Notes under the pieces: generated by a model
Database searches by the model: none
Seen by the model: the letters and a program-made list of their open reading frames with translations, nothing else
What the model was told of the DNA's origin: nothing
Source of the DNA: a virus
Lineage: Duplodnaviria; Heunggongvirae; Uroviricota; Caudoviricetes
DNA length: 64,000 nucleotides
IMG/VR virus record: IMGVR_UViG_3300035659_000001
Reading direction: 5' to 3' (one strand)
Shown here: positions 6,424 to 59,289 of the stretch, one piece after another
Numbering within the stretch: the stretch's first letter is position 1
Layout: each line of letters begins with the position of its first letter
Position numbers and translations under genes: made by a program

Positions 6424-7590
6424 ATGAAAGCAATTTATGCATTTTCGGGTGATCCAATAACATTTGGTCACATTGATATTATAGAAAGAGCTGCTAAGGT
6501 TTTTACAAAAGTGTTAGTTTGTATTGGCAGTAATCCAGATAAAAAGTATATGTTTACACTTGAACAAAGATTGCAAATGGCCCAAGATGCATTGTCGTCA
6601 ATTAAAAATGTTGACGTCAAATCTTTTTCAGGATTGCTTGTTGACTTTGCTTTTGAGCAAAACATTTCAGTTATAATAAAAGGTGTTAGAAATACTACAG
6701 ATTTTGAATATGAAAATACTCTTCATGCTGTAGGCGAAAGTCAAAAATTAGGTATTGAAACATTTATATTGTTTGCAAAACCACAATTGGCTCATGTTAG
6801 CTCTAGTACAGTTAAGTCAATTCAAAAAGAACATGGCTTTATTCATGAATATGTTACATTGAATGTTAAAGAAGCTTTAGAGAAGCAGATGTCAAAACAG
6901 CTTATTATTGGTGTGACTGGTGAAATTGCTGCTGGAAAATCGTATGTAACTGATGCATTAGTTAGTTTGCTGGATAAGTCAAAAATTGAAGCTCATAATA
7001 TTGATTTAGATATTATTGCACATGAAATATTAGGTAGTTTAAAATTGCCTCAATATGTTGAAGTTAGACACAAAATATCTGCTAGATTTGGTGAAACCAT
7101 TAAGGATCTTTATGATTCTATTAATAGAAAAAAATTAGGAGCAATAGTGTTTAAGGATTCAAATGCTCTTAAAGATTTAAATGACATAATGAGAGATTCA
7201 ATACTTGTAAGAATTAAAAGAGAATTAAATAACAAAGAAGGCATTATCTTTTTGAATGCTGCTTTACTTGTAGAAGCAGGTATGACAGATTTATGTAATA
7301 ATAATGTGATTTTAGTTAAGTGTGACAAAGTTGTTCAGAGATCACGTCTTTACAAACGAGGCCTTTCAACTGTTCAATTAAATAAACGATTAAAATCTCA
7401 ATATTCTTATGATGAAAAGAAAGCAGTTCTTGCTGAGAGAATAAGAGAACATAACAAATATACAGGTAATATATTTATTGTAGATACTTCAAAAAATGAC
7501 TCTGACATTATAAATACTGCTAAATTATTATCAAATTTGCAAAGCGGTGATTCTAAAGGATTGTGGAAAAACAAATTTTTGACTTTATAA
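6424..7590 (+). CDS. Bifunctional phosphopantetheine adenylyltransferase / dephospho-CoA kinase (CoaD-CoaE fusion)
   Basis: N-terminus 'MKAIYAFSGDPITFGHIDIIERA' is the CoaD (H/T)xGH nucleotidyltransferase signature. The C-terminal half has the DPCK P-loop 'IGVTGEIAAGKSY'. Confidence 0.8.
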   Translation: MKAIYAFSGDPITFGHIDIIERAAKVFTKVLVCIGSNPDKKYMFTLEQRLQMAQDALSSIKNVDVKSFSGLLVDFAFEQNISVIIKGVRNTTDFEYENTLHAVGESQKLGIETFILFAKPQLAHVSSSTVKSIQKEHGFIHEYVTLNVKEALEKQMSKQLIIGVTGEIAAGKSYVTDALVSLLDKSKIEAHNIDLDIIAHEILGSLKLPQYVEVRHKISARFGETIKDLYDSINRKKLGAIVFKDSNALKDLNDIMRDSILVRIKRELNNKEGIIFLNAALLVEAGMTDLCNNNVILVKCDKVVQRSRLYKRGLSTVQLNKRLKSQYSYDEKKAVLAERIREHNKYTGNIFIVDTSKNDSDIINTAKLLSNLQSGDSKGLWKNKFLTL

Positions 7591-7661
7591 CCCTCTATAA
7601 CTCAGTGGTAGAGTGGCGTTCTCTAAAAATGCTGTCATCAGTTCAAATCTGATTAGAGGGA
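7591..7661 (+). tRNA. tRNA with anticodon CUA (amber-suppressor type; amino-acid identity undetermined)
   Basis: Manual cloverleaf: acceptor CCCTCTA/TAGAGGG, D arm ACTC-AGTGGTA-GAGT, anticodon stem GCGTT/AATGC with loop CTCTAAA (U33, anticodon CTA, A37), T arm ATCAG-TTCAAAT-CTGAT, discriminator A. No encoded CCA. Confidence 0.7.
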
Positions 7662-7674
7662 TTGATAAATTATA

Positions 7675-7700
7675 AGAGGGATTAAAATCCCTCTTTTTAT
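7675..7700. terminator. Rho-independent terminator (bidirectional hairpin)
   Basis: AGAGGGAT-taaa-ATCCCTCT followed by TTTTTAT. Lies between the + strand tRNA and the converging - strand gene. Confidence 0.7.
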
Positions 7701-8080
7701 GCAAAATTTAAGTGCTTAAAAATCTCGCCAGTATCAATACATGCAATAGCTGTAACTTGATTATTCAAATCAGGTTCTTTAAATGACACATATATTTTTT
7801 TACGAGCAGCAAGTTTTGCTGCCCATAAATTTAAAACTGATTCATTTCTTATACCAAGAAATATAAGATATGAATTATTCCATTTTTTATATGCTTCTAA
7901 ATCACCTTTTAATGAATACTCGACAATAGCATGAGCACCTTGCACGCACCGATACGTTTGATCTAGATCTTTACGCACCAATACATACATTCTCGGTTCT
8001 CGAATATTCATTAATCCAACTCCTAATAAGTTCTTGATCAGGTTCGTTACCTTCTGCACATTTTGACTCAATTTGCTCAT
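7697..8080 (-). CDS. Peptidyl-tRNA hydrolase, PTH2-like (tentative)
   Basis: 'MYVLVRKDL...QGAHAI' and a C-terminal 'IYVSFKEPDLNNQVTAIA' resemble the archaeal/eukaryotic Pth2 fold. The true start is probably an internal Met (MNIREPRM or MYVLV), because the upstream gene overlaps. Confidence 0.4.
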   Translation of the reverse strand: MSKLSQNVQKVTNLIKNLLGVGLMNIREPRMYVLVRKDLDQTYRCVQGAHAIVEYSLKGDLEAYKKWNNSYLIFLGIRNESVLNLWAAKLAARKKIYVSFKEPDLNNQVTAIACIDTGEIFKHLNFA

Positions 8081-16022: not shown

Positions 16023-17000
16023 ATGAAAGCAAATTTAGCAAAACAAGATAAAAAGCGCTTTGTAATTATGTTAATTTGTCTCATTTTATTTTCATTGTGC
16101 TTTGCGCAAAAAGATTCAACAAGTGATAGTTCACACGTGCTATTACCAAAGTCAATCGGTCCAACAACTCTATTTCAAAAATCATCAAGATTTAGAATGC
16201 AAGAATATAATTATTTCCTTTTTGGTTTAAGTAAAAAAAGTCCTATAATGGAATACAAAAATCAAGTTAAAATTTTATTTAGCATGAAATTTAATTTTTT
16301 TACTTTTACTTATGATTCATTATTAGTACTTGTTAAATTCAAAAAGATAACTAAAAATTTTAATTTATATAGAAGTTTAAACGTTGATATCGGCTATAGA
16401 CAAAAAAGCTTCTGGAATATTTATGATGATTCTACTTCTCGTCCAATGTATGACAATAATTACTCACCCTCTTTCTATCTTTCATGGATAACTTACATCA
16501 AAAAAATATCATTACCAATTTCAATATTAGCAGGCTATGTTCACGAATCAAACGGTGGAGCTACTTTTTTAAACCCATATTGTCCGGCAATATCAAGAAG
16601 TTGGGATAGAATTTATTTAGGCGCAAGCGCAGGAAATTTACAAACAAATCTTGTAACATTTCAATTAGATATGTGGGTACCTTTTGGTCTTGAAGAAAAT
16701 ACTGATATATATAAACATTATGGAATTGGTGAAATAACTTTGTACTATCAGCCATTTTTCAAATATCAACATTCATTATCAAATTTTGGTCTATCATTTA
16801 CGTGGAAAATAGCTAGTGAAAATTTCAACAATGCTGAACTTAGCTTATTTTTCAGTCCCTTTCAATTTGCTAAAAACAAAATTCTACGATTATTCACGCC
16901 CACATTTTATTCTCAACTATATTTAGGAAGCGGTGAGAATTTAATTGATTATCAAACTAGACATATTTCTTTTAGAATCGGTTTAGCTACGTTATTTTAA
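16023..17000 (+). CDS. pldA: Outer-membrane phospholipase A (OMPLA/PldA family) with signal peptide
   Basis: Signal peptide 'FVIMLICLILFSLCFA', a catalytic 'HESNGG...SRSWDRIYLG' block matching PldA 'HDSNG...SRSWNRLY', and a beta-barrel C-terminus ending in F. Confidence 0.75.
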   Translation: MKANLAKQDKKRFVIMLICLILFSLCFAQKDSTSDSSHVLLPKSIGPTTLFQKSSRFRMQEYNYFLFGLSKKSPIMEYKNQVKILFSMKFNFFTFTYDSLLVLVKFKKITKNFNLYRSLNVDIGYRQKSFWNIYDDSTSRPMYDNNYSPSFYLSWITYIKKISLPISILAGYVHESNGGATFLNPYCPAISRSWDRIYLGASAGNLQTNLVTFQLDMWVPFGLEENTDIYKHYGIGEITLYYQPFFKYQHSLSNFGLSFTWKIASENFNNAELSLFFSPFQFAKNKILRLFTPTFYSQLYLGSGENLIDYQTRHISFRIGLATLF

Positions 17001-19148: not shown

Positions 19149-19224
19149 AGAAAATTTGCTCAATTGGTAGAGCGAAAGATTTAGGATCTTTACGTTGTTG
19201 GTTCAAATCCGACATTTTCATCCA
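19149..19224 (+). tRNA. tRNA with anticodon UAG (Leu by the standard code), class-I (short variable loop) structure, encoded CCA
   Basis: Acceptor AGAAAAT/ATTTTCA (A1·A72 mismatch), D arm GCTC-AATTGGTA-GAGC, anticodon arm AAAGA-TTTAGGA-TCTTT, variable loop ACGTT, T arm GTTGG-TTCAAAT-CCGAC, discriminator T, then CCA. Confidence 0.55.
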
Positions 19225-19458
19225 AACGTTTTATTCAATTTCGCCCTTCTTTTAATAAAAATTCTGTTGATACATGAGGTTAAACTCATGGTTTTAAAGG
19301 GTGCTGGTGAAAAGTCATGATTCCTCCTCGCCCTTTATTTTAAAGGTATAAAAATTATGAAAATGACAACGAACTTCACTTTTAATTGTAGCAGTTGCTT
19401 TAATAGTAGCAACTCAGTGAGGTTCATTTTCTAATTATTCCATTATAGAACAACTAGA

Positions 19459-19496
19459 AAAAAGGGCCTCACCTAAAAAATGAGGCCCTTTTTTTA
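19459..19496. terminator. Strong bidirectional rho-independent terminator
   Basis: AAAAAGGGCCTCA-cctaaaaaa-TGAGGCCCTTTTTTT. Confidence 0.75.
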
Positions 19497-20021
19497 TTGA
19501 GAAAAACTATGAAAATGTATATTTTAAGGTATTTGTTTGATATGAATATTAAACAATCTAAAAACTTTATTTTAAAGAAATCCCATACCTCAATTTGGAA
19601 TTTTTTACTTGTAATTTCTAATTTAATGTTTTTATTAAAAACAACATTATCACTAAATTCTTCCAATGACTTAGGGATAACAACAATAAATTCATTTAAA
19701 TTTAAATTACAAGAAAACTATGTACTAAACGCATTTTTAATTTTACATATTTAAGATTCATAAAGTGAAGATTGTAATTTTTTAAAACTTTGAAATTGTA
19801 TAAATGAATATGAGTTATGAATTAAAATTAAGTTTTGGTATGATGTGCAGGAAACAAAACTATTTGAGTTCTTTACAAGGATATGAGATTTTGTCGTGTT
19901 CAGAAATATTAAAACGTTATACTATTGTAAAACACGAAAATGATTATGATTTGGTAGACAATTTGGATTTGTTAGTTGAGTTTTTATATAAGAATATATT
20001 TTGAAAATTAGTGTAGTCGCC

Positions 20022-20094
20022 GCCGCCTTAGCTGAGATGGATTAGCGCAAGCCTGAAGAGCTTGAGAGCACAGTTCGATACTGTGAGACGGCAT
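20022..20094 (+). tRNA. tRNA-Phe (GAA)
   Basis: Acceptor GCCGCCT/AGACGGC (one C·A mismatch), D arm GCTG-AGATGGAT-TAGC, anticodon arm CAAGC-CTGAAGA-GCTTG, T arm CACAG-TTCGATA-CTGTG, discriminator A. Confidence 0.7.
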
Positions 20095-20104
20095 TTGAAA
20101 TCAT

Positions 20105-20179
20105 AGATAGGTACGCAAATTGGCACGCGGCAGGATTGTTACTCCTGTGATTTTGGGGGTTCGACTCCCTCCCTATCTG
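20105..20179 (+). tRNA. tRNA-Asn (GUU)
   Basis: Acceptor AGATAGG/CCTATCT, anticodon arm CAGGA-TTGTTAC-TCCTG, T arm GGGGG-TTCGACT-CCCTC, discriminator G. Only 11 nt after tRNA-Phe. Confidence 0.7.
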
Positions 20180-20340
20180 TTATTTTAATTATGGAGAAGT
20201 ATAGGCAATGGATAATAATGCTTTTATAAATTTTCTAATGGAAAGTAGTCGGATATTGGTTTGCCGAAGCTATCTGCTAAATAGTTGTTCAATAAAATGA
20301 ACTGAAAGTTCAATTCTTTCACTTTCCGTTAGGAGATTTT

Positions 20341-21483
20341 ATGTATAAATGCAATGATTGTAAATTAGATTTTAAAAATCGATCACAATTAGCAAATCAT
20401 TTTAGATGGAAACATAAACAATGTTTAATTTTCAAATGTAATAAATGCAACAAAGAAATAACAGATAAAAGCGGTTTGACGATTCATGAAAAATTTTGTA
20501 CAGGTGTTAAAGAAAAGAAAAACAATATTTGTCCAAAATGTAACTTTACAATTAAAACAAACTATAAGAAACATGTTGTTTCATGTAATGGGTTAGGTCC
20601 TCGTCGATTAAGAACAAAACATCGCGAGAGAGTTGTTTTAACAAAAGAAAATATTGAAATAATTAGAAAACAATATGATGATAATGTGCCATTAAAAATT
20701 ATTAGACAGCAAAATAAGTTTTCAAAATTACAAGTTAGACATGCATTAAAAGGATATAAGAAGCGATCAAAGTCAGACGTTATTAAAAGAAGTCACAAAG
20801 AAGGTAGAATGTGCAGACTGCAATTTCACGAATCTTTTGCTGAAAAGTTTTTTAATGACTTTTTACAAAAATCAGGATATAAATTAGGATTGGATTATAT
20901 TCGTGAATATAGAGTTTCTTATTATCGAATTGATTTCTTTTTTCAAAATTTGAATATAGCAATAGAAGTAGATGGATCACAACATTATACATATAATCAT
21001 CAAATAGAAATTGATAAAAGAAAAGATCAATTATTGAATAATCTTGGTATTAAAGTAATAAGGTTACCTTGGAAAGTGGTTTGTAATGAGTCAAAAAATA
21101 CATTAAATGAGGTACTAGATATTATTAAAAACAAAAATGTTGATGAATTTAATAATAAACAGAAAATTAAATTAGCAGATTTATTAAAAAAACGAAAAGA
21201 AACAAAGAAAAAGCAAAAACAAAGAAAGAAAAATTTGCCAAAAAAATACATTGAAAAATTAATAATTGCATTAAATAAATGCATTGTATATAAAACATAT
21301 ATGAAGCGCATGAATGATTTAAACAATGTTGATTTAAAAAAATGGGGAACTATTTCTGAGCTTTCAAATTTATGGAATGTTTCTCATACTCAGGTTAGAC
21401 GATATATTGAAAAACATTGTTTGTTAGAAAAATCAAAGACGGTGTGGCAGAGTTGGTACATGCTACGGTCTGCAAAACCGTAA
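20341..21483 (+). CDS. C2H2-type zinc-finger protein with a C-terminal DUF559/Vsr-like PD-(D/E)XK endonuclease domain (possible homing or free-standing endonuclease)
   Basis: N-terminal 'YKCNDCKLDFKNRSQLANHFRWKH' and further CxxC pairs. 'NIAIEVDGSQH...DKRKDQLLNNLGIKVIRLPW' matches the DUF559 endonuclease core. A Lys-rich linker. The last ~15 codons overlap tRNA-Cys. Confidence 0.5.
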   Translation: MYKCNDCKLDFKNRSQLANHFRWKHKQCLIFKCNKCNKEITDKSGLTIHEKFCTGVKEKKNNICPKCNFTIKTNYKKHVVSCNGLGPRRLRTKHRERVVLTKENIEIIRKQYDDNVPLKIIRQQNKFSKLQVRHALKGYKKRSKSDVIKRSHKEGRMCRLQFHESFAEKFFNDFLQKSGYKLGLDYIREYRVSYYRIDFFFQNLNIAIEVDGSQHYTYNHQIEIDKRKDQLLNNLGIKVIRLPWKVVCNESKNTLNEVLDIIKNKNVDEFNNKQKIKLADLLKKRKETKKKQKQRKKNLPKKYIEKLIIALNKCIVYKTYMKRMNDLNNVDLKKWGTISELSNLWNVSHTQVRRYIEKHCLLEKSKTVWQSWYMLRSAKP

Positions 21484-21510
21484 ACGTCGGTTCAAATCCG
21501 ATCACCGTCT
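21438..21510 (+). tRNA. tRNA-Cys (GCA)
   Basis: Acceptor GACGGTG/CACCGTC, D arm GCA(G)-AGTTGGTAC-TGC, anticodon arm ACGGT-CTGCAAA-ACCGT, T arm GTCGG-TTCAAAT-CCGAT, discriminator T. Confidence 0.7.
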
Positions 21511-21694
21511 CTTTTTAAATCAATTCTACGATAAATCACATGATTATAATAATAAAGGAGGATATTTGACATTATTATAAACTTTTCAAGGAGGTTTTTA
21601 TAAGATCTATGTGATTAGTTTATTGTTATCTTGTCAGTTTACTGGCTAGATATCGTTCTAAAACGAAAATTAACAATTAACGAAGGGATTAAAA

Positions 21695-24710: not shown

Positions 24711-25358
24711 TTAGAACGTGGCGCTGCACCGGCGTCTAATTTCATCAATTAACCATTTTCTAGCATTAGTCTGCTGCACAAGTTTATGATTCATGTTGAT
24801 TTTTTCAATAAATTCTTTGTATGATATTTTTTCAAATGTATAAATAGCTGATTCAAGTGAAACATTGTATATCTTACTCAAACTATTTTTGTAGACTTCA
24901 TAATAAGCATTGCCTCTTAAATATGCTTTCTCATTTTGTTTTCCTCTATGCTCTACATCATGAAAGTGACTTTTATTATTAATAAATCTACCATCATATC
25001 CCAATAAATATATTTCTTTAAATTGTAATGCAATACCCACTGATAAGGCAAACAAACCCACTAAATAAGGACTATACATGCCATCTTTAAATCCATTAGT
25101 ATTATATTGTTTTGACGTTTTTAATGTAATGAAATCATCAGGAACTGACAAAACTTTTTTTGTTATTTTCAATGCTTTATTATTTAGTATTTGTTGTTTA
25201 TTGTTTTGAGAAAAATCTTTATCGACCCAAACAATAGCTGTCGGCTCATAAAAATGACATACAAAATTTAATCCAAACGTTATGTGATTATTTAATGTAT
25301 GCAAATCAAAACTATCTATGCTAGAACCACCACCAATTATTATTAGCTTTTCATTCAT
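24711..25358 (-). CDS. GT42-like (CstII/Cst-I sialyltransferase-like) glycosyltransferase
   Basis: The motif order matches Campylobacter CstII. 'KLIIIGGGSSI' corresponds to IIAGNGPSL, 'TFGLNFVCHFYE' to VFRCNQFYFE, 'YLVGLFALSVGIALQFKEIYLLGYDGRF' to GVYMCAVAIALGYKEIYLSGIDFY, and 'HFHDVEH' to the catalytic-His region. Confidence 0.55.
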   Translation of the reverse strand: MNEKLIIIGGGSSIDSFDLHTLNNHITFGLNFVCHFYEPTAIVWVDKDFSQNNKQQILNNKALKITKKVLSVPDDFITLKTSKQYNTNGFKDGMYSPYLVGLFALSVGIALQFKEIYLLGYDGRFINNKSHFHDVEHRGKQNEKAYLRGNAYYEVYKNSLSKIYNVSLESAIYTFEKISYKEFIEKINMNHKLVQQTNARKWLIDEIRRRCSATF

Positions 25359-28300
25359 TTTTTAATCTTCTTGATGCTTGAAAGTGTTCAATTACAGGCT
25401 TATCTGCATCTTTCATTGTGTCAAAGATTTGACAATATGCAGGAGATAAAATGTAAGTTTTCAAATTTTGCAATGAATTAACTGCTTCATGAAGATAGGA
25501 TTGATCTAATTTATATTTTTTATTATTGCTATTAACTAACTGTTTCCATTTTTCTAACAATTCAAAAGCTTTTTGAGTATAATTGAAATACATAGTACCG
25601 CCAAGCAGCTCGCTAGTGTTATTTCTTTTCATTCTTAAGTGATATGCAAAATCATATTTATCTAACTTAAATAATAACTCAGGCTGTTGTTGAATTATTG
25701 CATCACAATCAACCCATACTACAGGACATCTATGCTTATTTAGCATGTCTTTAACAAATTCAGTTCTATAAAAACAATTTGCAAACCAACTACCCTGTGA
25801 GTTAATACCAATTATTTCATAATTCAATTTAAATTTTTTCAATGATAATTCTAAAGTTTTGTATTCTTTTTCATAGCCTGTATTTTTAGTATAATAAGAC
25901 ACAAACACTAAGTTAGAAGTCGGTTGTTCTAGTTGACGTGTAACTTGTTTTGATTCAACAATTGGTTGAATTTGTTCAATCTCTTTAAATGTGGTTTGTT
26001 CAAATTGAATATCTAAATTTTTAAAATCTATATTCTTACGATTAGGTAACAAATTAATAAAATCATTACTCATATTTTCAATCTCTTTAAATTTATTTTG
26101 CATTACTAATTGAAAAGTGTTATCCCATAATTTCTGAGTGACTGACCAACTAAAAAACTTTTCAATGTGTTGTCTATTTCTTTCGCCAGTTTGTCGTCTT
26201 AATTGAAGATTGTTTTTCAATAACAATAACTTTTCATTCATTTCTTTTATTACTTGATCATCAGGTGTCACTGACACTATCCATTGCTCGTCTAATAGCA
26301 TACAGATACTGCCAACTTTAGTTGAAACAACTGGCAATCCGCAAGCCATTGCTTCTAATACTACTCTTGGCATACATTCACTTATGCTTGTTAAAATTAA
26401 TACATCAATTGAATTGTAAAAGTCTTTCATTTTGTCTAATGTTTGACCATCAACAAAGTATTGCTTTCCCCAGTCACTCTTTTTTTCAACTTTAAAATCT
26501 AATTGATCTAATAAATAAGGTCTTTTTACATCTCTGATGCAGCCTGCCCAACCAACAATAAAACTATTTGATTTTTTATTAGAAGGAATAAAGTAATTAG
26601 TATCAATAGCTTCAGGTAAGAAAATTACTGACTTGTTAGGATACATTTGTCTCAAAAAATCCAGATGTTGAATCGAAATTGAGACTATTATGTCAGGCTC
26701 AGGTTCGTATTTCATTTTACATTCGCCGCCATAGCCGCCAATTATTTTCACATTCTTTTGTTTTAATTGTGTTATCAATTGCTGACATCTAGTATAATCT
26801 ATATTCGGTGAATGTATGTACACTACATCAGCGCTTAAAGTTGTTACATCTAGTAATCTTTTATATTCAATGTTATGAGTTGAATATTTTTGTTGATCTT
26901 TTGCAATAAAATAATATGCCCAACCGAACTGGTCAATTATTTTACAAATAGTAAGTTTTTTGTTTTGTAAGGTTGGTTTCTGTTGAATATTTTGAACATT
27001 TTTTTTAGTAGGTACATATTCATTCCAATTTCTAAAACATAACTTGCATGTGTCATTCATTTTATTTGGCTCACAGAGACTGTCTCTTAAATTGCTGGCA
27101 TAGTCATTTTGCCAGACAATATTATCTTTTATGGTTCCGTGTTCTTTTGCAGGCGCAAAGACGGAACCACAAAATGAAACGCTTCCGTTACCATTTATGC
27201 CAATTGTTGTCCACGGTATTTGACAATTACATCTTATTTCATTTCGTTGTATTAATGTAGGATAAAGCTTGATAATGTCAGCTTCTGGTAGATTTTGCAA
27301 TTCGTCAATTTCTTTTTTATCATTATACGTTAATACTTCATTCCAAAAATTTTCATCATCATAATTGACAGCTAAGTGAGGTAATAAATTTAATAAATGA
27401 ACTGTTTTAACACCATGATCTTTTACTAATTTTAAAAATTCAGGAACATATTTCAAATTACTTTTCGTGCAAACATAAGAACAAAATGTATTAAGATCAT
27501 TACTTATACAAAAATCAATGCCTTGTAAGACTTTTTGAAATGTATTTGAATTATTTATTTTATTATGTAGTTTTGCATTTGGTGCATTTAAGCTAATCGA
27601 TATATAATCAGGTTTTGCATTAAGTAATTCATTAGCTCTATCAATTATTAATGACCCATTGGTTATTAGACCCACAATTTTATTTTTATTTTTCAAATGG
27701 TTAATAATTTGAAATAAATTTTGATTTAGAAATGGTTCACCATACCCTGCACAACAAAAACTTTTTAAACTATCAAATTTAGATAATAAATTATTGACAG
27801 TTTCAATAGTTAAGTCAGGCGCTTGTTCAATTAGATTTGTATTTCTGTAGCAAAAATTACAATTAAAGTTGCATTTTGAAGTTAAGTATAAATTTGCATT
27901 TATAGGCATTTGTAAGAAGCTACGTGCACGTTCAAAGCTTCGATGATGACATCTAAAATCTTTTTCACCAATTTGTATGTTATCATTAATCAAACTAGTG
28001 TATATTCCAAGAAATGCATATAAGTTATTTTCGGAAGGATTAGATTTTAATATATTCCATAATTTTAGCGGTAAATCAGCAATCCATATATATTTGAATT
28101 GCTTAAATTTGTCCATTAAATTATAATAACGTTCAAATATACCTTCATTTGACCATTGTGGAGCATGTTTGCCAACTATATTTTTAAATAATTTAATTAA
28201 ATATCCATCTTGTTTAAGTCTGTCAATTTGTTCAACTTCACAAGACATTGATTCTAAATTATATGGATATTTTTTGAGAATATCATGCTTGTAAATTTTT

Positions 28301-28623
28301 ACGCCCGAGATTTCAAAGTCAAGATGAACATCAATTAAATTACAAATTATAATGGCAGTTTTATTATTAGATTGCTTAGCGAAATTATAGAGTGTTTCAA
28401 TGCCATTTTCATTCATAACCATATCTTCATCTATTTCAATATAATATGACGTTTTACAAGAGTCAATCATTAATTGAAAAGCTGCAGACATTGGATGAAC
28501 ATTTTTAATAATTTCAATATTGAACGTGAGCGTTTGCTGTTGCAATGCTTTTATACATTCATTATAGCACGGATTTTCCCCACAGCTAATTACAAAAACA
28601 GTTAAGTCTTTAGCAAAGTTCAC
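25351..28623 (-). CDS. 1090-aa four-domain enzyme: GT-A/GT2-like, radical SAM with SPASM/twitch Cys cluster, GT-B/GT4, and a C-terminal DXD nucleotide-sugar transferase-like domain
   Basis: N-terminus 'TVFVISCGENP' and 'YYIEIDEDMV' (DXD). rSAM 'YLTSKCNFNCNFCY' (CX3CX2C), 'GYGEPFL', 'ISISLN'. SPASM 'CNCQIPWTTIGINGNGSVSFCG...CEPNKMNDTCKLC'. GT4 'VGWAGCIRDVKRPY...ECMPRVVLEAMACGLPVVSTKVG'. C-terminus 'PVVWVDCDAI'. Overlaps the GT42 gene by 8 nt. Confidence 0.75.
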   Translation of the reverse strand: MNFAKDLTVFVISCGENPCYNECIKALQQQTLTFNIEIIKNVHPMSAAFQLMIDSCKTSYYIEIDEDMVMNENGIETLYNFAKQSNNKTAIIICNLIDVHLDFEISGVKIYKHDILKKYPYNLESMSCEVEQIDRLKQDGYLIKLFKNIVGKHAPQWSNEGIFERYYNLMDKFKQFKYIWIADLPLKLWNILKSNPSENNLYAFLGIYTSLINDNIQIGEKDFRCHHRSFERARSFLQMPINANLYLTSKCNFNCNFCYRNTNLIEQAPDLTIETVNNLLSKFDSLKSFCCAGYGEPFLNQNLFQIINHLKNKNKIVGLITNGSLIIDRANELLNAKPDYISISLNAPNAKLHNKINNSNTFQKVLQGIDFCISNDLNTFCSYVCTKSNLKYVPEFLKLVKDHGVKTVHLLNLLPHLAVNYDDENFWNEVLTYNDKKEIDELQNLPEADIIKLYPTLIQRNEIRCNCQIPWTTIGINGNGSVSFCGSVFAPAKEHGTIKDNIVWQNDYASNLRDSLCEPNKMNDTCKLCFRNWNEYVPTKKNVQNIQQKPTLQNKKLTICKIIDQFGWAYYFIAKDQQKYSTHNIEYKRLLDVTTLSADVVYIHSPNIDYTRCQQLITQLKQKNVKIIGGYGGECKMKYEPEPDIIVSISIQHLDFLRQMYPNKSVIFLPEAIDTNYFIPSNKKSNSFIVGWAGCIRDVKRPYLLDQLDFKVEKKSDWGKQYFVDGQTLDKMKDFYNSIDVLILTSISECMPRVVLEAMACGLPVVSTKVGSICMLLDEQWIVSVTPDDQVIKEMNEKLLLLKNNLQLRRQTGERNRQHIEKFFSWSVTQKLWDNTFQLVMQNKFKEIENMSNDFINLLPNRKNIDFKNLDIQFEQTTFKEIEQIQPIVESKQVTRQLEQPTSNLVFVSYYTKNTGYEKEYKTLELSLKKFKLNYEIIGINSQGSWFANCFYRTEFVKDMLNKHRCPVVWVDCDAIIQQQPELLFKLDKYDFAYHLRMKRNNTSELLGGTMYFNYTQKAFELLEKWKQLVNSNNKKYKLDQSYLHEAVNSLQNLKTYILSPAYCQIFDTMKDADKPVIEHFQASRRLKNE

Positions 28624-37925: not shown

Positions 37926-40900
37926 TTATTCGTTTGCCATTTCATCATATTTGGCTAATTTCTCCTTTTGCTCGGGAGTTCTTTCATATAAATTGCCAAC
38001 ACAACAAATATCTAACAAATCTATAAATATTCTGCCCATATATTCGCTAGCAACAGCTTCACCAACTAAAATATTATCAACTTTGATAACTTCTTGAACT
38101 TTGACTTTTGCATATTTTCCAGTTTCTTGTTTTAAAAGAAAAGCGCTTGAGCATCTTCTATTATAACAGGGTATTCTAACTTTGACCATGTTAAATTTTG
38201 AATCAGTTAATGTCACATAATAATAACTATTATTAGCTTTACTTGTTTTTTCAACAATCTCAGAAGCTACTCCCCAAACAGTAGCTTTCATATTTACTTT
38301 TGGTTGTGTAAAATTTGTTAACATGACAGCTTTTAATTTTGCAACTTCTCTTTTTTGACTATCAGATAATTTTGTTCGCCAATCTAAAGCATAAGCATCA
38401 ATAAACTGTTCATGTTCATATTTTGTATCATTATAATCAACATCTCGTTCCCACTTTTTCTCTTTTCTTATTTCTTTGTAATATTTTTCTAATATCTCAT
38501 TTTGAGTGCCAAATGCATCAAATGCATGACCGCTAATTAAAGCTATCATAGCTGTTTTTGTTATTTTCTTTATTTGTGATGTTTTCTCGCAAAAATCTTC
38601 AAATGAATCAAATGGCTGTGACTGTAAAATATTATTTATAACTGCAGGTCCTACATGATTTATATGGCCTAAGCCAAACATAATACTTTTTTCTTCACCA
38701 TATATTGAAAAACCTTCTTTAGCTCTGCTAATATTTGCAGGAACAATACTTATGCCATGACTTATGATCTCTGCAAAATAACTTGTAAACTTTTCCTTCA
38801 ATGAATTTGACAACAATACTACATAAAACTCCAAAGCATAATATTCTTTAAACCACATCATCTGGTAACTTAGAACAGTGTATGCTACTGCATGCGAGCG
38901 GTTGAATCCGTAGCGTGCAAATGCGACGCAACTTTGCCACAAAATTTCAGCAGAAGTTTCAATTAAGTCACCGACGCTTATACAGCCCTTAATAAATTTA
39001 TCATGAATTTCTTTTCGTTGTTTAGCTTCTTTATCTTTTGCATCAGTGTCTCGTATTGATTTCATTAAATTTTTTCTAACTGTATCAGTCAAATCTAATG
39101 GAAATCCTGCAACCATGTGACACAATCTCATTACATCTTCTTGATAAACTAAAATACCATAACTTGATTTCAAACATTTTTCAACTAATTTTGATTCGTA
39201 ATTGAATTCTTTACCATTTTTTCTTTGTGCATATTCATGATGCATTCCCATATCTAACGGTCCGGGGCGACCTAGCGCTGTTGCTGTCGTTATGTCAGAA
39301 AACGTTGTAGGTTTTATTTCTTTCAATAAAGCTTTCATTAAGTTGCTATTATGAACTACAAATCCATTAGCTATATAATTATGATTTATAGCTTCAGGAT
39401 CAAAACCAATATCATAAACTTCTTTTGTACCAACAAATTGAATGGCTTTAATTGGCACATATATATACCTGAACATGTGTCTTGCAAATCGTTTATATAT
39501 TTTAACTTTAACTTTACCCTTTTTCCATACACGTCTAAGAATATAATCTTTCTTATAAGTTTTTATTGGTCTAAATTTTGACAACAATTGAGGTCTACAT
39601 GTTCTTTGACCACTTCTAATGCAACTTGCGCAATTTTCAGCTATACCTTGCACATCTACTGATCTATTGTAAAATGCACAATAATGTTGACATCTGAACC
39701 GCTCTTGATCAATTAATATTTTGTCATCAACTTTTAATTCTTCTAATCTTTTCCAACCGCGAGGTGTATAAAATTCATGTAGTAATGCAGTTTCAATACA
39801 TCTATCGTTATCATATTGAACTGTAACTCTGTAAACATCTCGTACTTGTTTTTTCATAGCAAATATTTTTTGTCTAATTTTCATTTTTCTAGTTGACGGA
39901 TTTAAATTAACACAGCTAACTTTGTGTATTGACTTTTTATTTTTTTCAAACATATCATATAAGTTTTTGATTCTATATGAGCCAACCCATGAATTGCCGT
40001 CAATACATTCAAATTGAAAAATACCATTTGTATCAGTTTGTCTAAATTTTGAATAAATTGTGTTATTGCCATCTAACGGCAATTTTGATGAAAATTCTTC
40101 ATAAAATAATGATGTTATTTGCTTATGTTCAATAGATCGTAAATCAAAATCTGCTTTATCATTATACGATTTTGTTGATCTAATAATGTCAAGTATTTCT
40201 TTTATAATAGATAATGTTTTTAGACCAAGAATATCAAATTTAATGAATCCTGAAGATTGTAAATCTTTTCGAATGATGCCATCAACCCAGCTTGTTATAA
40301 GCTCATTTTTATGTCTCATTAAAGGTATTGTTTCATCAATTTTTGTCGGCGTTGCAACTACACCTGCGGGATGTTTTGTAAGATGTCTTAATTGGCCTTT
40401 TAGTTTGAATAAGATCTCTCTTATTTGAGGATGTCGTCCAAGATATTGTTTTATATCATATAGATCCTGTCTAAAGCCATCTTGACCAGATTCAATCATT
40501 AAAGTTGCGTCAAACACTTCTTCAGACATTTCATCAACATCATCAGCAAGATTTTTAACAACATCATTAGTGTCTTGAATATCAATATCAAATATTCTAG
40601 CAATATCTCTTAAAACCATTTTCATTTTCATTTGACCGTAAGAGCCAATAGGAGCTACATGGTCATTGCCATATTTGTCAATAAAATATTTAATGACAAG
40701 TTCTCTTTCATTCATACTAAAATCACTATCAATGTCAGGAAATGAAGATTGCTTTTTGATTTTTAGAACGATGTTGTTTTTGATTGGATCTGTAGACGAT
40801 ATGTTTAAAAGATAATACATTAAAGAACCGTGCGTTTTAACTTTTACTTTATTTTTAATGAGGCTAATTATGTAGTCTTGTAAATTTTGAACATTGACAT

Positions 40901-41012
40901 TTGTTAATTCTCTTTCAAGTGCTTGAATATATTTATCATTTTCATGTAATGATAGTTCTTTTAATTTTTTCTCACACAAATATTGAATAAAATCAATTTT
41001 TTTTATATCCAT
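37926..41012 (-). CDS. dnaE: DNA polymerase III alpha (DnaE, family C) C-terminal segment containing an intein
   Basis: 'FPDIDSDFSMNERELVIKYFIDKYG' corresponds to DnaE 'MPDFDVDFCMEKRD..', 'FIKFDILGLKTLSII' to 'FDFLGLRTLT', 'ALGRPGPLDMGM' to 'ALFRPGPLQSGM', 'YGILVYQEDVMRL' to 'YGIILYQEQVMQI', and 'RSHAVAYTVLSYQMMWFKEYY' to '[21 protein letters not shown]'. Confidence 0.8.
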   Translation of the reverse strand: MDIKKIDFIQYLCEKKLKELSLHENDKYIQALERELTNVNVQNLQDYIISLIKNKVKVKTHGSLMYYLLNISSTDPIKNNIVLKIKKQSSFPDIDSDFSMNERELVIKYFIDKYGNDHVAPIGSYGQMKMKMVLRDIARIFDIDIQDTNDVVKNLADDVDEMSEEVFDATLMIESGQDGFRQDLYDIKQYLGRHPQIREILFKLKGQLRHLTKHPAGVVATPTKIDETIPLMRHKNELITSWVDGIIRKDLQSSGFIKFDILGLKTLSIIKEILDIIRSTKSYNDKADFDLRSIEHKQITSLFYEEFSSKLPLDGNNTIYSKFRQTDTNGIFQFECIDGNSWVGSYRIKNLYDMFEKNKKSIHKVSCVNLNPSTRKMKIRQKIFAMKKQVRDVYRVTVQYDNDRCIETALLHEFYTPRGWKRLEELKVDDKILIDQERFRCQHYCAFYNRSVDVQGIAENCASCIRSGQRTCRPQLLSKFRPIKTYKKDYILRRVWKKGKVKVKIYKRFARHMFRYIYVPIKAIQFVGTKEVYDIGFDPEAINHNYIANGFVVHNSNLMKALLKEIKPTTFSDITTATALGRPGPLDMGMHHEYAQRKNGKEFNYESKLVEKCLKSSYGILVYQEDVMRLCHMVAGFPLDLTDTVRKNLMKSIRDTDAKDKEAKQRKEIHDKFIKGCISVGDLIETSAEILWQSCVAFARYGFNRSHAVAYTVLSYQMMWFKEYYALEFYVVLLSNSLKEKFTSYFAEIISHGISIVPANISRAKEGFSIYGEEKSIMFGLGHINHVGPAVINNILQSQPFDSFEDFCEKTSQIKKITKTAMIALISGHAFDAFGTQNEILEKYYKEIRKEKKWERDVDYNDTKYEHEQFIDAYALDWRTKLSDSQKREVAKLKAVMLTNFTQPKVNMKATVWGVASEIVEKTSKANNSYYYVTLTDSKFNMVKVRIPCYNRRCSSAFLLKQETGKYAKVKVQEVIKVDNILVGEAVASEYMGRIFIDLLDICCVGNLYERTPEQKEKLAKYDEMANE
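39348..40007 (-). other. Intein (about 220 aa) inserted in the DnaE 'GxFQxES' motif
   Basis: The extein reads 'NGIFQFE|S NLMKALLKEIKP', matching DnaE 'GVFQLESRGMKDLIKRLQP'. The insert begins with 'CIDGNSWVG' (block A Cys) and ends 'NGFVVHN' followed by Ser (block G). The interior is basic and Cys-rich. Confidence 0.6.
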
Positions 41013-41029
41013 TATTATCCTTATGCTTT

Positions 41030-41362
41030 TTAATTGTCGAGAGTTACAATTTTTACTTTTCTCGACGTTAATAGCGTTTGAAGATCAATATTAAAGGTGT
41101 TGTAATCTAGAATCCAACATTTTTTATCTATGAAAGTGTCGCCGTCAATATCAAATTGCTTGAAATAAATAGCTTGCCATGAAATTGATTTATTCAAAGT
41201 TGTATTACAATACATTAATAATGATGAAAAACTTTCAAGCATTATCATGGAGCTAAATTTTTGTATAAAATAGTCAAACCACATATTTCGTTGTTTGATG
41301 CCTGTAAGTTGTACAAAATCAAATAACGTTAAATTTTTATCAACAATAAACATTATTTTCAT
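41030..41362 (-). CDS. hypothetical protein
   Basis: ORF between the two dnaE segments. Confidence 0.35.
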   Translation of the reverse strand: MKIMFIVDKNLTLFDFVQLTGIKQRNMWFDYFIQKFSSMIMLESFSSLLMYCNTTLNKSISWQAIYFKQFDIDGDTFIDKKCWILDYNTFNIDLQTLLTSRKVKIVTLDN

Positions 41363-41384: not shown

Positions 41385-42014
41385 TTACCTCGTAGCTAAA
41401 GAGCAAATGTTCTCTTTAGAAATATCAACGTCTATTTGCTTACTTTGAATAGTAAGTTTTGCAATTGCTTTATCTTTTATAGATACAAACAATTCATTTC
41501 CCTTTAATTCAACTGATAATTGTTCATGTAATTTATCGACATCAATATTTTGTCGTAACATCCATGAAGGTGAAAACGGATCACTATGACGAAATCTTGG
41601 TACTTGAAAAGACGGTCTTCCAAATGTACCTGTTACACCTGATAAACCTGTAACACCTGATAAACCTGTAACACCCTGTATACCCATATATCCTACAAGT
41701 TCAGCAGGCGCACCTACAAATTCAGTGCCAGTTGCACCACCAATAAGCCCGTTAGTTACCATGTGTCCGTTAGATGAAAGTGCAACACTTTGAACTCGTC
41801 TTTCAAAAAGAGTATCACGGGAAAGACATTCTTGACTTATTTGTTCATTTTCTATTTCATCGTTACAAAGTAAATTAAATTTTTCAAAAGATTTTTTACT
41901 AACAATATCTACTTTGTCAACAACTATATCGTCTACTCTATTATAGCTTCTAAAAAATAATTTTTTCTTAACTAAATCTAACCCATTAATTGCTAAAAAT
42001 TTTTCATTTGACAT
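41385..42014 (-). CDS. hypothetical protein with an in-frame 18-nt tandem repeat (GVTGLSGVTGLSGVTG)
   Basis: DNA repeat 'CCTGATAAACCTGTAACA' about 2.5 times at ~41640-41690, giving Gly-Val-Thr-Gly-Leu-Ser repeats. Confidence 0.4.
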   Translation of the reverse strand: MSNEKFLAINGLDLVKKKLFFRSYNRVDDIVVDKVDIVSKKSFEKFNLLCNDEIENEQISQECLSRDTLFERRVQSVALSSNGHMVTNGLIGGATGTEFVGAPAELVGYMGIQGVTGLSGVTGLSGVTGTFGRPSFQVPRFRHSDPFSPSWMLRQNIDVDKLHEQLSVELKGNELFVSIKDKAIAKLTIQSKQIDVDISKENICSLATR

Positions 42015-42775
42015 TTTAGCTTCTTTATAGTTCTTTCATAGTCCTCAAATCTAATTTTTGCTATTTTTGATCGATCACTTGTCCTGACTACAATACCTTC
42101 TGGTTTTCCACCCTCTCCGTCAATAGGTGCATTTGTCTTACCGGGAAGCATAGTTTTTAACCAAGCAAATGTCTCTATTAAATCTTTAGGCGGACAATAT
42201 GACTCTAATCTTGGAACTATTGGTATATCGACTTTTCTTGCTATATCTTGAAATTGCTGTTCATTAAGAAATTTTTGATGACCATGATCACGAAGAAAAG
42301 AAATTGACTGAATTGAATTATTCACTAAAAAACTATCAAAATCATATTCAGAATCATAATAAGCGACATCGAATAATCTAAAACCAGGTGCACGACAACT
42401 TGTATAATTTTTAGCGTTATTAATATTCAATCCATATACTTCACCAAAAAATATCCATACATAACTTGTTAAATTTATATCATTGAACTTTGACATTAAT
42501 GGTCTTAAAGTATCTACTATGCCCATTGATGGATTGTAAATTAAATCACCACTAGCAGTAAGTAGTTCTTCCCTTGAGCCTATAAAATAAGACTTATCAT
42601 AAAATAGAATGATCCTTGCATTAGTGCCATCAATCTTCTCTGTAAGAATTACTGGATCATTAAATTCAACTTGAACATTATTTACTAAACTACCTTTATC
42701 ACCAAGTTCATGATAAGTAAGAATTGAAGGATATTTTGCTGCTGAATTTAATTTGTCTAAATTTGTCTTAATCAT
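41993..42775 (-). CDS. RNA ligase, Rnl2-like (nucleotidyltransferase superfamily)
   Basis: Motif I 'KIDGTNARI', motif IV 'EGIVVR', motif V 'KIRFEDY'. Size 260 aa. Confidence 0.7.
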   Translation of the reverse strand: MIKTNLDKLNSAAKYPSILTYHELGDKGSLVNNVQVEFNDPVILTEKIDGTNARIILFYDKSYFIGSREELLTASGDLIYNPSMGIVDTLRPLMSKFNDINLTSYVWIFFGEVYGLNINNAKNYTSCRAPGFRLFDVAYYDSEYDFDSFLVNNSIQSISFLRDHGHQKFLNEQQFQDIARKVDIPIVPRLESYCPPKDLIETFAWLKTMLPGKTNAPIDGEGGKPEGIVVRTSDRSKIAKIRFEDYERTIKKLKCQMKNF

Positions 42776-57990: not shown

Positions 57991-59289
57991 ATGATTGATG
58001 CAATTAAAATAATCAAAAAACTAGATGATAACGGCTTTCAAGCAGTATTAGCTGGCGGTTGTGTCAGAGACTTAATTCTTGGTTTACCATCAAATGACTA
58101 TGATATTGCTACAAATGCTACGCCTGAAGTCATAGAGTCATTATTTGAGAAAACAATACCAGTTGGCAAATCATTTGGCGTTATAATTGTCATAGAAAAT
58201 GACAAACAATATGAAATTGCTACGTTTCGTGAGGACGGAAAATATTCTGATAATAGGAGACCAGATTCAGTTACCTTTGGCTCAATAGAAGAAGACGCTA
58301 AAAGACGAGACTTAACGATAAATGGCATTTTTTACGATCCAATAATAAATAAATACTATGATTTTGTCAATGGCGTAGACGACATTCAACGCAAAATTGT
58401 TCGTTTTATTGGCGATCCCAATAAGAGAATTGAAGAAGATAAACTAAGAATATTACGCGCTTGTAGATTTTCAATTAAATTTGATTTTGAGATTGAAAAA
58501 GAATCTTTCGAAGCTATTAAAAATCATGCTCATGAAATTCAAACAGTTTCAATTGAACGTATAAGTGATGAATTTATTAAAATATTACGTTTAAGAAAAC
58601 CCAAAAAAGCATTTGATTTACTATTTGAAACTAAACTCATTGACTACGTCTTACCTGAAATAAGAACTTTGCAAGGTGTAGAACAACCAATTGACTATCA
58701 TCCCGAGGGCTGCGTTCTTACACATACAATAAAAACACTTGAAAATTTGCCTGAAAATGCATCAGATGAATTATTGATGGGCATGTTATTACATGATATT
58801 GGAAAACCTGCAACTTTTGAAATGCTTGATAGAATTAGATTTAATGGTCATGATAAAAAAGGAGCTGAGATAGCAGAAGTTATTCTCAAAAGAATGAAAT
58901 TTTCAAATGATTTCATTGACAGAGTAGTTTCTCTAGTTTCAGATCACATGAAATTTATGGCTGCACCTATCATGAAAATGTCTACTCTCAAACGGTTTGT
59001 ACGACAACCTCATTTTAATGAACATCTAGTTTTGCACAGAGCAGATTGTTTATCATCTCATGGCAATTTAGACAATTATAATTTTGTTGTACAAAAGATG
59101 AATGAAATACCGCCAGAGAAAATAAAACCACCTAAATTAATCACAGGTAAAGATTTATTAGATTTAGGCTTTATAGAAGGGCCTATTTTCAGAACAATTT
59201 TAGATGATATTGACGATAAACAATTAGAAGAAATAATTAAAGATAGGGAGTCAGCACTGTTATATGTCAAACAACAATATACAAAATAA
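57991..59289 (+). CDS. cca: tRNA nucleotidyltransferase (CCA-adding enzyme), class II with HD domain
   Basis: 'LAGGCVRDLILG...DYDIAT', 'RRDLTINGIFYD', 'ERISDEFIKIL'. HD domain 'LLHDIGKP...GHDKKGAEIA'. Confidence 0.8.
   Translation: MIDAIKIIKKLDDNGFQAVLAGGCVRDLILGLPSNDYDIATNATPEVIESLFEKTIPVGKSFGVIIVIENDKQYEIATFREDGKYSDNRRPDSVTFGSIEEDAKRRDLTINGIFYDPIINKYYDFVNGVDDIQRKIVRFIGDPNKRIEEDKLRILRACRFSIKFDFEIEKESFEAIKNHAHEIQTVSIERISDEFIKILRLRKPKKAFDLLFETKLIDYVLPEIRTLQGVEQPIDYHPEGCVLTHTIKTLENLPENASDELLMGMLLHDIGKPATFEMLDRIRFNGHDKKGAEIAEVILKRMKFSNDFIDRVVSLVSDHMKFMAAPIMKMSTLKRFVRQPHFNEHLVLHRADCLSSHGNLDNYNFVVQKMNEIPPEKIKPPKLITGKDLLDLGFIEGPIFRTILDDIDDKQLEEIIKDRESALLYVKQQYTK

Follow-up and report, generated by a model that had tools for sequence, protein, structure and literature searches.

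A UAG-reading tRNA, a PTH2-fold protein and a helical partner protein form a conserved cassette of large phages

The 64,000-nucleotide (nt) stretch of huge-phage DNA analysed here, IMG/VR record IMGVR_UViG_3300035659_000001 (G+C 29.4%; "the window" in what follows), encodes at 7591-7661 a tRNA with the anticodon CUA and, beside it, a protein with the fold of the peptidyl-tRNA hydrolase family PTH2. Both belong to a conserved cassette, present on hundreds of large-phage contigs and composed, in order, of (i) a small protein, here called ORF-A (ORF, open reading frame); (ii) the PTH2-fold protein of about 100 residues, whose gene overlaps or is fused to that of ORF-A; (iii) tRNA(CUA). The tRNA of the window is a real, structurally selected phage tRNA, and its anticodon pairs with UAG. 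Taken jointly, the results are read as a real tRNA(CUA) held in a conserved cassette with a dedicated two-protein hydrolase, in a phage that uses the standard genetic code; this joint reading is given about an even chance of being correct. Stop-codon recoding in phages is accepted to proceed through suppressor tRNAs, and at issue are the control of such a dangerous molecule and its presence in many standard-code jumbo phages. A protein pair found nearly always with tRNA(CUA), in a cassette of ~700 nt, offers a concrete, clonable handle.

Linkage of the protein genes and the tRNA

The first relative of the PTH2-like protein, 55% identical and encoded on a 149-kb ENA scaffold, is followed after 5 nt by a tRNA(CUA) gene. 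A scan of IMG/VR with the family alignment gave 43 loci at 34-53% identity, 41 of which possess a suppressor-type tRNA within 4 kb (40 CUA, one UUA); the tRNA begins 0-20 nt past the PTH2-like stop codon, on the same strand, at 25 of the 43 loci and 85-600 nt past it at eight more. The scan of JGI metagenomes yielded 348 relatives, of which the best 80 were taken and 76 were evaluable (at least 110 nt downstream). At these loci the tRNA lies 0-30 nt downstream in 54 cases and within 4 kb in 61, and the nearest downstream tRNA is CUA or UUA in 61 of the 66 loci with any downstream tRNA. In most relatives the tRNA is co-directional, with 0-8 nt between the PTH2-like stop codon and its first base. 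Of 14 sampled cassette tRNAs, 13 were confirmed by Infernal, with 47-63 bits.

The linkage is still seen between proteins of about 35% identity. When the flanking ORFs were clustered all against all, no other neighbour family was common to more than five IMG/VR loci, which means that the PTH2-like gene and the tRNA have been kept together while the other neighbours were reshuffled. The adjacency, described as notable in an earlier reading made from the sequence alone (the sequence-only reading), is thus borne out as a deeply conserved linkage. In the converse direction, a search for CTCTAAA with the common T arm pattern gave 70 distinct evaluable tRNA(CUA) genes of IMG/VR, chosen regardless of proteins; a PTH2-like match was present anywhere in the stored stretch for 20 of them and immediately adjacent for two. 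The proteins are usually found with tRNA(CUA) and the tRNA often without the proteins, which is the pattern of an accessory factor.

The PTH2-like family is large and phage-only: a search of 1.84 billion representatives gave 641 clusters at E<=1e-10, and 2,497 when the limit was E<=1e-3. It was absent from the 185,579 GTDB species genomes searched, which gives no clue to a host. Deposited phages with the family are the Lak megaphages, several "huge phages" of 460-735 kb, and Stenotrophomonas and Xanthomonas jumbo phages; Aeromonas T4-like phages show weak matches, and none of the 37 phage records matching the family is crAss-like. XacN1 and RAS14 represent a different branch, in which the PTH2-like domain is fused to an HD domain and does not lie near a tRNA. 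The N-terminus of XacN1 ORF364 was considered as a possible ORF-A and ruled out, since it is the HD domain.

The window carries a rearranged variant. Its tRNA is inverted relative to the usual cassette order and abuts the stop codon of a fused CoaD-CoaE gene, the first tRNA base being the one right after the TAA, and still lies 35 nt (counted from its 3' end) from the PTH2-like ORF. At locus L148, whose PTH2-like protein is 91% identical, the tRNA follows the CoaD-CoaE stop codon after one base. Because the tRNA abuts this stop codon, it is probably co-transcribed with CoaD-CoaE. A hairpin between the tRNA and the PTH2-like gene is likely a bidirectional terminator, judging from a scan that placed a minus-strand site at 7695-7674 and, on the plus strand, the hairpin followed by TTTTTA. 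The cassette tRNAs closest to that of the window are those of the co-directional relatives (72-75%), which indicates that the window tRNA is of the same lineage and has been relocated. An exact copy of it was not found in IMG/VR, and megablast against deposited phages gave no match.

Individual loci show further variation around the cassette. The 735-kb phage LR756501 (L146 5421-5574) has two tandem tRNA(CUA) genes 2.1 kb after the PTH2-like gene. In Lak-A1 (L059 3233-3305) a tRNA(UUA), which would read UAA and UAG, lies ~700 nt upstream of the PTH2-like copy, and UUA variants are also present in L021/L105, L066 and L112. The cassette position of L130 (10313-10384) is occupied by a tRNA called Arg(UCU) by ARAGORN and containing TTCTAAA; this may in fact be a CUA tRNA whose anticodon arm is irregular. 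In L137-L142 the PTH2-like gene contains a TAG and no suppressor tRNA was detected, and in L138, L140 and L142 a tRNA-Thr(CGU) lies 600-750 nt downstream. Other RNA elements were a HEARO/OMEGA-type RNA (RF02033, 113 bits) directly after the cassette tRNA(CUA) of L047 (4420-4656), a group I intron (RF00028, 93 bits) in L014 (2580-2778), where it sits within the tRNA array that precedes the cassette, and phage tmRNA genes within 2-3 kb upstream of the cassette in L023 (1222-1597) and L043 (1855-2186).

The PTH2-fold protein and ORF-A

The mechanically defined ORF of the PTH2-like protein spans 7697-8080 on the minus strand; on sister contigs the start assigned by gene callers is 8011 or 7990, and 7697-8011 was used. 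At the sequence level the protein remains below the Pfam gathering threshold for PF01981 (16.6 bits against 23, E=0.0095), a domain matched weakly by 16 of 24 family members (best 4.8e-6). It matches phrog_3668, annotated "hydrolase", at 2.4e-9, and the family profile retrieves the peptidyl-tRNA hydrolase 24bt_A from the PDB at E=0.005. The AlphaFold model has a mean predicted local distance difference test (pLDDT) score of 93.7, and all 13 Foldseek matches at E<=0.001 are PTH2-family chains (E 1.3e-5 to 6.6e-4, probability 1.00) with query-normalised template-modelling (TM) scores of 0.70-0.80 and 14-21% identity. The chains include MJ0051, AF2095, human Bit1, PH1539, S. solfataricus PTH2 and Ta0108; the top matches are 2zv3, 3erj, 1q7s and 1xty (TM 0.72-0.80), and two further high-probability matches are 2gax (Atu0240, of unknown function) and 1rzw (PTH2). 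The PTH2-like neighbour that the sequence-only reading had placed downstream on the opposite strand is therefore confirmed by its fold, with a sequence score that is sub-threshold.

The motifs VR.DL and VQ.xHA are common to the window family and PTH2. The canonical GK lysine loop of PTH2 aligns with a two-residue deletion and variable residues in the phage family, and an invariant E-P-D....T occupies the position of DAG.T in the family alignment. The active-site lysine of the GK loop and the Asp and Thr of DAG.T owe their assigned roles to the S. solfataricus enzyme. Polar residues conserved across the phage family are D15, Q24, H27, E79-P80-D81 and T87, and their conservation argues for an enzyme. 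The modelled protein is thus clearly, at the level of fold, a PTH2 with what appears to be a remodelled but conserved polar site.

The cassette-bearing relative L011 carries a canonical PTH2 in addition to the divergent PTH2-like protein, which indicates that the two are not redundant. The canonical gene (L011 5061-5624, PF01981) comes directly after two tRNA-Gln genes (UUG, CUG) and is a second PTH2-tRNA juxtaposition in one phage. A Cas12f1/TnpB-like gene is found in L011 at 6538-7650.

ORF-A overlaps the start of the PTH2-like gene by 41 nt, which suggests translational coupling. Its homologue is located directly upstream of the PTH2-like gene at 100 of the 113 loci with room for one. Fusion of ORF-A to the PTH2-like domain, with linkers of differing length, was identified in at least four loci (L049/50, L135/136) and seven database proteins (P0054, P0065, P0100, P0104, P0161, P0150 and P0135); in P0100, P0065 and P0150 the motif RH.H.AY..RG.....IE...N.P is followed by MYVLVR.DL. 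The repeated fusion is strong evidence that both proteins act as one unit. The C-terminal motif of the window ORF-A reads RHKHIAY..RG..YEQIE..C..GNEPDQ, and its AlphaFold model (pLDDT 84.7) consists of a long helical hairpin and a small basic C-terminal element. No family match was obtained in Pfam, PHROG or NCBIfam, nor any significant structural neighbour; resemblances to the arm of seryl-tRNA synthetase (E~6-9) and the helix-turn-helix of MarA (E 2e-4, far below the cut-off) were treated as leads only. The sequence-only reading was right in naming a tRNA with a CUA anticodon, a PTH2-like neighbour and the standard code in the window, and overlooked this third partner. As possible roles of the tRNA it had offered late-gene read-through, interference with host or competitor translation, or a decoy function.

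Structure of the tRNA

ARAGORN calls a class I tRNA of 71 nt with the anticodon cta, one of six tRNAs in the window, and the Rfam model RF00005 covers all 71 bases (1-71) with 60.1 bits, against a gathering score of 29 (E=1.7e-10). Both programs, at the same coordinates, uphold the canonical cloverleaf with a CUA anticodon proposed from the sequence. The following elements were identified: (i) an acceptor stem of 7 bp, CCCUCUA/UAGAGGG, followed by a UA spacer; (ii) a D arm, ACUC-AGUGGUA-GAGU, with G18G19 in the loop; (iii) an anticodon arm, GCGUU-CUCUAAA-AAUGC, with U33, A37 and A38; (iv) a variable loop of 4 nt; (v) a T arm, AUCAG-UUCAAAU-CUGAU; (vi) the discriminator A73, with no encoded CCA. 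As in amber suppressors, 5'-CUA-3' is located at positions 34-36 of a 7-nt loop with U33 and a purine at 37. The loop CUCUAAA is that of classic efficient amber suppressors, and A36-A37-A38 is the context for i6A37. The acceptor end with C1-G72 and A73 is at odds with the Gln identity rules of E. coli.

Comparison by eye with the tRNA of L148 revealed differences at about 15 of the 71 positions, with all helices kept and the anticodon loop identical. Three base pairs are fully compensated; the window has C-G in place of G-C at 1:72, A-U in place of G-C at 10:25, C-G in place of U-A at 11:24 and G·U in place of G-C at 29:41. Helices kept by compensatory changes are direct evidence of selection on the tRNA.

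All 83 distinct cassette tRNAs possess a short variable loop. CUCUAAA is the anticodon loop of 51 of them, with A37 nearly universal, and this suppressor-type loop argues for real decoding. Among 78 of them the discriminator is A73 in 54, G73 in 14 and U73 in 10, and G1-C72 occurs in 60; such variable acceptor ends argue against one synthetase that recognises cassette tRNAs through the acceptor stem. Borges et al. (bioRxiv 10.1101/2021.08.26.457843) note a tendency of TAG suppressors to be charged with glutamine by way of the anticodon. Nearest-neighbour typing of the 83, with 260 other phage tRNAs as the reference, yielded low scores and a slight resemblance to Lys, Phe and Arg tRNAs but not to Gln, and by these sequence comparisons the cassette tRNAs do not appear to be recent copies of a phage tRNA-Gln. 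The residues found opposite in-frame TAG (Y, Q, K, L, W, E) were discarded as a guide to the amino acid, because antisense shadow frames dominated and few sites were left after filtering.

ARAGORN draws 26 of the 83 tRNAs, for example those of L011, L015, L016 and L019, with an 8-bp acceptor stem (an extra U-1:A73). Infernal trims these drawings to 7 bp, and a U recurs before and after these tRNAs; the eighth pair probably arises from misplaced boundaries. Pair counts were not based on a MAFFT alignment of 12 cassette tRNAs, in which the anticodon stem was out of register.

Genetic code of the cassette carriers

The code of this phage was assessed over the ~83 kb visible, composed of the window and ~20 kb of flanks (10 kb each side, read from sister contigs), of a genome apparently larger than 200 kb. 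The 83 gene proxies in this region stop at TAA (51), TGA (21) and TAG (11), and no TAG-interrupted gene is present in the window or the flanks. Back-up stops after TAG-ended genes are no closer than those after others, either in the window or at the cassette loci. Coding density in the window rises from 0.84 (standard code) to 0.88 when TAG is treated as sense, a gain smaller than that for TGA, and the longest ORF is unchanged. In a Hoc/tail-like Ig protein of 1383 residues, encoded just upstream of the window, the 940 codons visible are free of stops. The sole in-frame TAG junction between two window ORFs, that of 54738-55061 and 55071-55262, was rejected as a read-through candidate, since the TAG sits in a TAGGAGG Shine-Dalgarno sequence 7 nt before the ATG. 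The sequence-only reading had held the window genes to be intact under the standard code, which agrees with these results, and had proposed a scan for long ORFs broken only by TAG, which found none in the ~83 kb. This phage uses the standard code over that region and, by extension, presumably beyond it.

Recoding does occur among the other carriers. About 14 loci have an in-frame TAG within the PTH2-like gene itself, and the Lak-A1 locus, a positive control for recoding, rises in density from 0.59 to 0.88 with TAG as sense. A locally recoded appearance was noted for about four of the 63 distinct cassette loci of at least 6 kb. The complete 462-kb genome LR756500, with a tRNA(CUA) 840 nt after the cassette, shows no gain from TAG as sense in the 200 kb sampled. 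According to published surveys, 7,108 of 7,295 huge phage genomes use code 11. With few recoded loci and an apparently standard-coded LR756500, the cassette is not a marker of recoding, and most of its carriers, this phage included, are probably standard-coded. No aminoacyl-tRNA synthetase or release factor domain was found in the scanned window ORFs or in the Pfam lists of the flanks; the neighbours of the tRNA are CoaD-CoaE, a methyltransferase, ORF-A, the PTH2-like protein and Pol X, which do not make up a "code change module".

A code switch, in which the tRNA would read in-frame TAG in late genes outside the window with the help of the PTH2-like pair, is unlikely in view of the uninterrupted genes of the window and flanks, the normal use of TAG as a stop with back-up stops no closer than elsewhere, the long stop-free stretch of the Ig protein beside the window, and the scarcity of recoding among cassette loci, in LR756500 and in huge phages at large. 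The idea draws on the finding of Borges et al. that suppressor tRNAs in standard-code early regions unlock recoded late genes; the window is an early-type replication and translation region, its low GC is a condition said to favour recoding, and the family is present in TAG-recoded Lak phages and at the loci with TAG inside the PTH2-like gene.

Possible function

To our knowledge, the sole chemistry of the PTH2 fold is ester hydrolysis, which releases a peptide or an amino acid from the 3' end of a tRNA, and a hydrolase dedicated to tRNA(CUA) is the parsimonious reading. ORF-A and the PTH2-like protein would then act as one two-domain enzyme that recognises tRNA(CUA) and hydrolyses its 3' ester, aminoacyl or peptidyl, thereby setting the extent of UAG decoding and which amino acid is used. 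A proofreading or limiting role is leaned towards, in which unwanted charge would be stripped or suppression capped; plain peptidyl-tRNA recycling is held less likely, because host Pth and a canonical phage PTH2 exist. The CUA anticodon is a magnet for mischarging in E. coli. An unrestrained suppressor would lengthen the products of 13-16% of the phage's genes, those with TAG as their stop. In this phage tRNA(CUA) would serve as a low-level or conditional UAG decoder, not as an agent of genome-wide code change. In recoded lineages with TAG inside the hydrolase gene, synthesis of the enzyme would need suppression, which would create a negative feedback.

A more far-reaching, tentative proposal, thought possible but clearly short of probable, is that the cassette is a self-contained, portable UAG-handling device with a built-in governor or proofreader of read-through, in which the protein would perhaps recognise the amber tRNA through its anticodon loop or elbow. 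A wilder form of it, held as part of the same tentative proposal, would be a tRNA-dependent, release factor 1 (RF1)-independent resolution of ribosomes at UAG. Either form, if true, would account for the retention of an amber tRNA by many huge phages that use the standard code. Should the pair tune or proofread suppression, it would count as a new component of the "code change" toolkit and could find use in engineered amber suppression.

Several points weigh against the joint reading. The hydrolase activity and substrate of the pair are deduced from the modelled fold and the gene order, which is its first weakness, and without the GK lysine loop the PTH2-like protein may be a binder instead of a cleaving enzyme. 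Because the loci share ancestry and the collections overlap, the counts express conservation and not independent origins; the tight spacing could reflect selection for co-transcription alone. Distances between tRNAs correlate weakly with those between proteins (Mantel r=0.15, reached by 40 of 2000 permutations). A suppressor tRNA is lacking within 4 kb at 15 of the 76 metagenome loci, and within 3-4 kb in the complete huge phages LR756504 and LR756511. In the window and L148 transcription of the tRNA is not coupled to that of the proteins, and in L148 a gene of 281 residues lies between the tRNA and the PTH2-like gene. A third weakness, beside the deduced role and the relatedness of the loci, is that ~83 kb of the genome was read, and late genes beyond it may be TAG-recoded.

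It is quite unlikely that the cassette is a coincidental operon, in which a general PTH or ribosome-rescue enzyme came to lie beside tRNA(CUA) through tRNA islands and a common transcript. The next tRNA is nearly always CUA or UUA and not a random member of multi-species arrays, the linkage survives deep divergence of the protein while other neighbours change, the family has diverged from canonical PTH2, and one phage can carry both, and a dedicated partner, ORF-A, is repeatedly fused. A jumbo-phage PTH2 has been read as a ribosome-rescue factor (Iyer et al., PMC7824862), cassettes sit inside tRNA clusters in many loci, and the RNA ligase and CCA-adding enzyme of the window suggest a general tRNA-repair theme; these are the observations in its favour.

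A non-decoding tRNA, that is, a decoy, protector or regulatory RNA (for example against tRNA-targeting defences) bound or shielded by the proteins, is very unlikely. It would suit the CUA tRNAs of XacN1, described without a findable read-through target (PMC5852040), the apparent standard code of most cassette phages and the lack of the canonical catalytic lysine loop. All features for ribosomal decoding are nonetheless kept (U33, A37, A38, G18G19, UUCAAAU and the 7-bp acceptor), with helices maintained by compensatory changes; no CUA host tRNA exists, so there is no cleaved host tRNA to replace; and in recoded relatives the cassette accompanies real TAG decoding.

ARAGORN prints "tRNA-Pyl" for any CUA anticodon, and its drawing of the window tRNA has a 6-bp anticodon stem and a 3-nt variable loop. 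Genuine tRNA-Pyl has one base between the acceptor stem and the D arm, a short D loop without G18G19 and no T54-psi55 motif. A pyrrolysine tRNA or a decaying relic has practically no chance of being the right explanation, the former being at odds with the two spacer bases, the 7-nt GG D loop AGUGGUA and the standard T loop UUCAAAU, together with the absence of a PylS- or PylBCD-type match among the ~35 window ORFs scanned (not every ORF), and the latter opposed by the high Rfam score and the compensated helices. A standard-coded phage with a working tRNA(CUA) and a hydrolase pair dedicated to it remains the preferred reading.

Other features of the window

Judged by its gene content, the window appears to be a replication and translation region from a very large phage. 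Near-identical contigs are present in two JGI metagenomes (135.6 kb and 122 kb) and several SRA assemblies, and one contig of 0.2-1 Mb carries the SbcC gene. The JGI contigs include Ga0373625_0000124 (3300035701, 135.6 kb) and Ga0373627_0000026 and _0000389 (3300036761). The window encodes an NAD-dependent ligase, Pol X-PHP, RecA, SSB, an RNA ligase, a 5'-3' exonuclease, a primase, a NusG-like protein, a CCA-adding enzyme, SbcC and five further tRNAs. The positions of the main features are given in Table 1.

Table 1. Position and basis of the cassette components and associated features in the window
Feature	Position	Strand	Basis
Fused CoaD-CoaE gene, 388 residues	6424..7590	+	PF01467 and PF01121; TIGR01510 151 bits, TIGR00152 92 bits
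tRNA(CUA), amber-decoding type	7591..7661	+	ARAGORN, Rfam RF00005, sequence
9-bp hairpin AAGAGGGAT-TAAA-ATCCCTCTT, T runs on both strands	7674..7695		Terminator scan, consensus match only
PTH2-fold protein, 104 residues, start MNIREPRMYVLVRKDL	7697..8011	-	AlphaFold, Foldseek, phrog_3668
ORF-A, 100 residues	7971..8273	-	Conserved position and fusion; no family
CCA-adding tRNA nucleotidyltransferase	57991..59289	+	NF009814 266 bits; PF01743/PF12627/PF01966 for the identical gene in L007/L008

The CCA-adding enzyme could supply the 3' CCA that the tRNA gene does not encode. CoaD-CoaE combines pantetheine-phosphate adenylyltransferase and dephospho-CoA kinase, the last two steps of coenzyme A (CoA) synthesis, and may be compared with the eukaryotic CoA synthase; a distant relative (33% identity) was found in one IMG/VR contig, L006. 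A full trigger-factor homologue is encoded at L061 8671-9969, on a sister contig just upstream of the window, a NusG-like protein at 52009-52545 of the window and a SpoVG-like protein at L008 18905-19189. Together with the CCA-adding enzyme and the RNA ligase, they constitute an unusually rich set of translation and transcription accessory proteins.

The DNA polymerase III alpha subunit is split into two pieces, 37926-41012 (-) and 42853-44697 (-), located ~1.8 kb apart and separated by the ORFs 41030-41362 and 41385-42014 and the RNA ligase (41993-42775); the C-terminal piece contains an intein-like insertion with a weak PF14890 match at residues 350-555. A protein of 1090 residues (25351-28623, -) joins radical SAM and group-1 glycosyltransferase domains. 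The other five tRNAs form a cluster at 19149-21511 (Leu-UAG, Phe, Asn, Ser-GCU, Cys); between tRNA-Ser and tRNA-Cys lies an ORF of 380 residues (20341-21483), C2H2 zinc-finger/DUF559 endonuclease-like, whose 3' end overlaps tRNA-Cys by 46 nt. A homologue of outer-membrane phospholipase A1 (PF02253) at 16023-17000 (+) hints at a Gram-negative host.

Comparison with known systems

Phage suppressor tRNAs, also in standard-code jumbo phages, and PTH2 genes in jumbo phages are already known. No paper treating PTH2 together with a suppressor tRNA was found in open-access full texts, and the main recoding and huge-phage papers make no mention of peptidyl-tRNA hydrolase. YbaK/ProX, AlaX and DTD are small free-standing trans-editing deacylases, which hydrolyse the ester of wrongly charged tRNA. 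By analogy, the activity proposed for the pair would be the same; the folds are unrelated, and none of these enzymes is known to be genetically tied to a suppressor tRNA. Canonical PTH2 (PF01981; 2zv3, 3erj, 1q7s and 1xty) has the fold in common with the window family, as well as VR.DL and Q..HA. The differences relate to the low sequence identity, the deleted GK loop, EPD....T in place of DAG.T, the obligatory partner or fusion ORF-A, and the near-exclusive linkage to one tRNA species.

The TAG-recoded phages (Lak, crAss-like, "code 15"; Borges et al., bioRxiv 10.1101/2021.08.26.457843; Peters et al., PMC9523058) resemble the window in possessing a CUA tRNA and low GC, and their suppressor tRNAs are likewise located in a standard-code region among replication and translation genes; Lak phages carry the same PTH2-like family. 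In contrast to them, the readable genes of this phage contain no in-frame TAG, and TAG is a normal stop. The code-change partners listed for such phages are tRNA synthetases and release factors, with no hydrolase among them (bioRxiv 10.1101/2021.08.26.457843; PMC9523058). XacN1 (PMC5852040) also combines an amber-type tRNA with a standard-code jumbo phage in which no read-through target is identifiable, and has a PTH2-like domain protein related to the window family. It differs in that this domain is fused to HD instead of ORF-A and lies at a distance from the tRNAs of the terminal repeats.

The "code change module" of Jade phages, formed from a suppressor tRNA, Trp-tRNA synthetase and RF1 (Borges et al.), is likewise a compact standard-coded cassette. 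The differences relate to the stop codon (TGA), the proteins and the position of the Jade module next to recoded lysis genes, none of which were seen here. The three-part cassette of ORF-A, PTH2-fold protein and tRNA(CUA), not found described in open-access full texts, extends this phage "code-change" theme.

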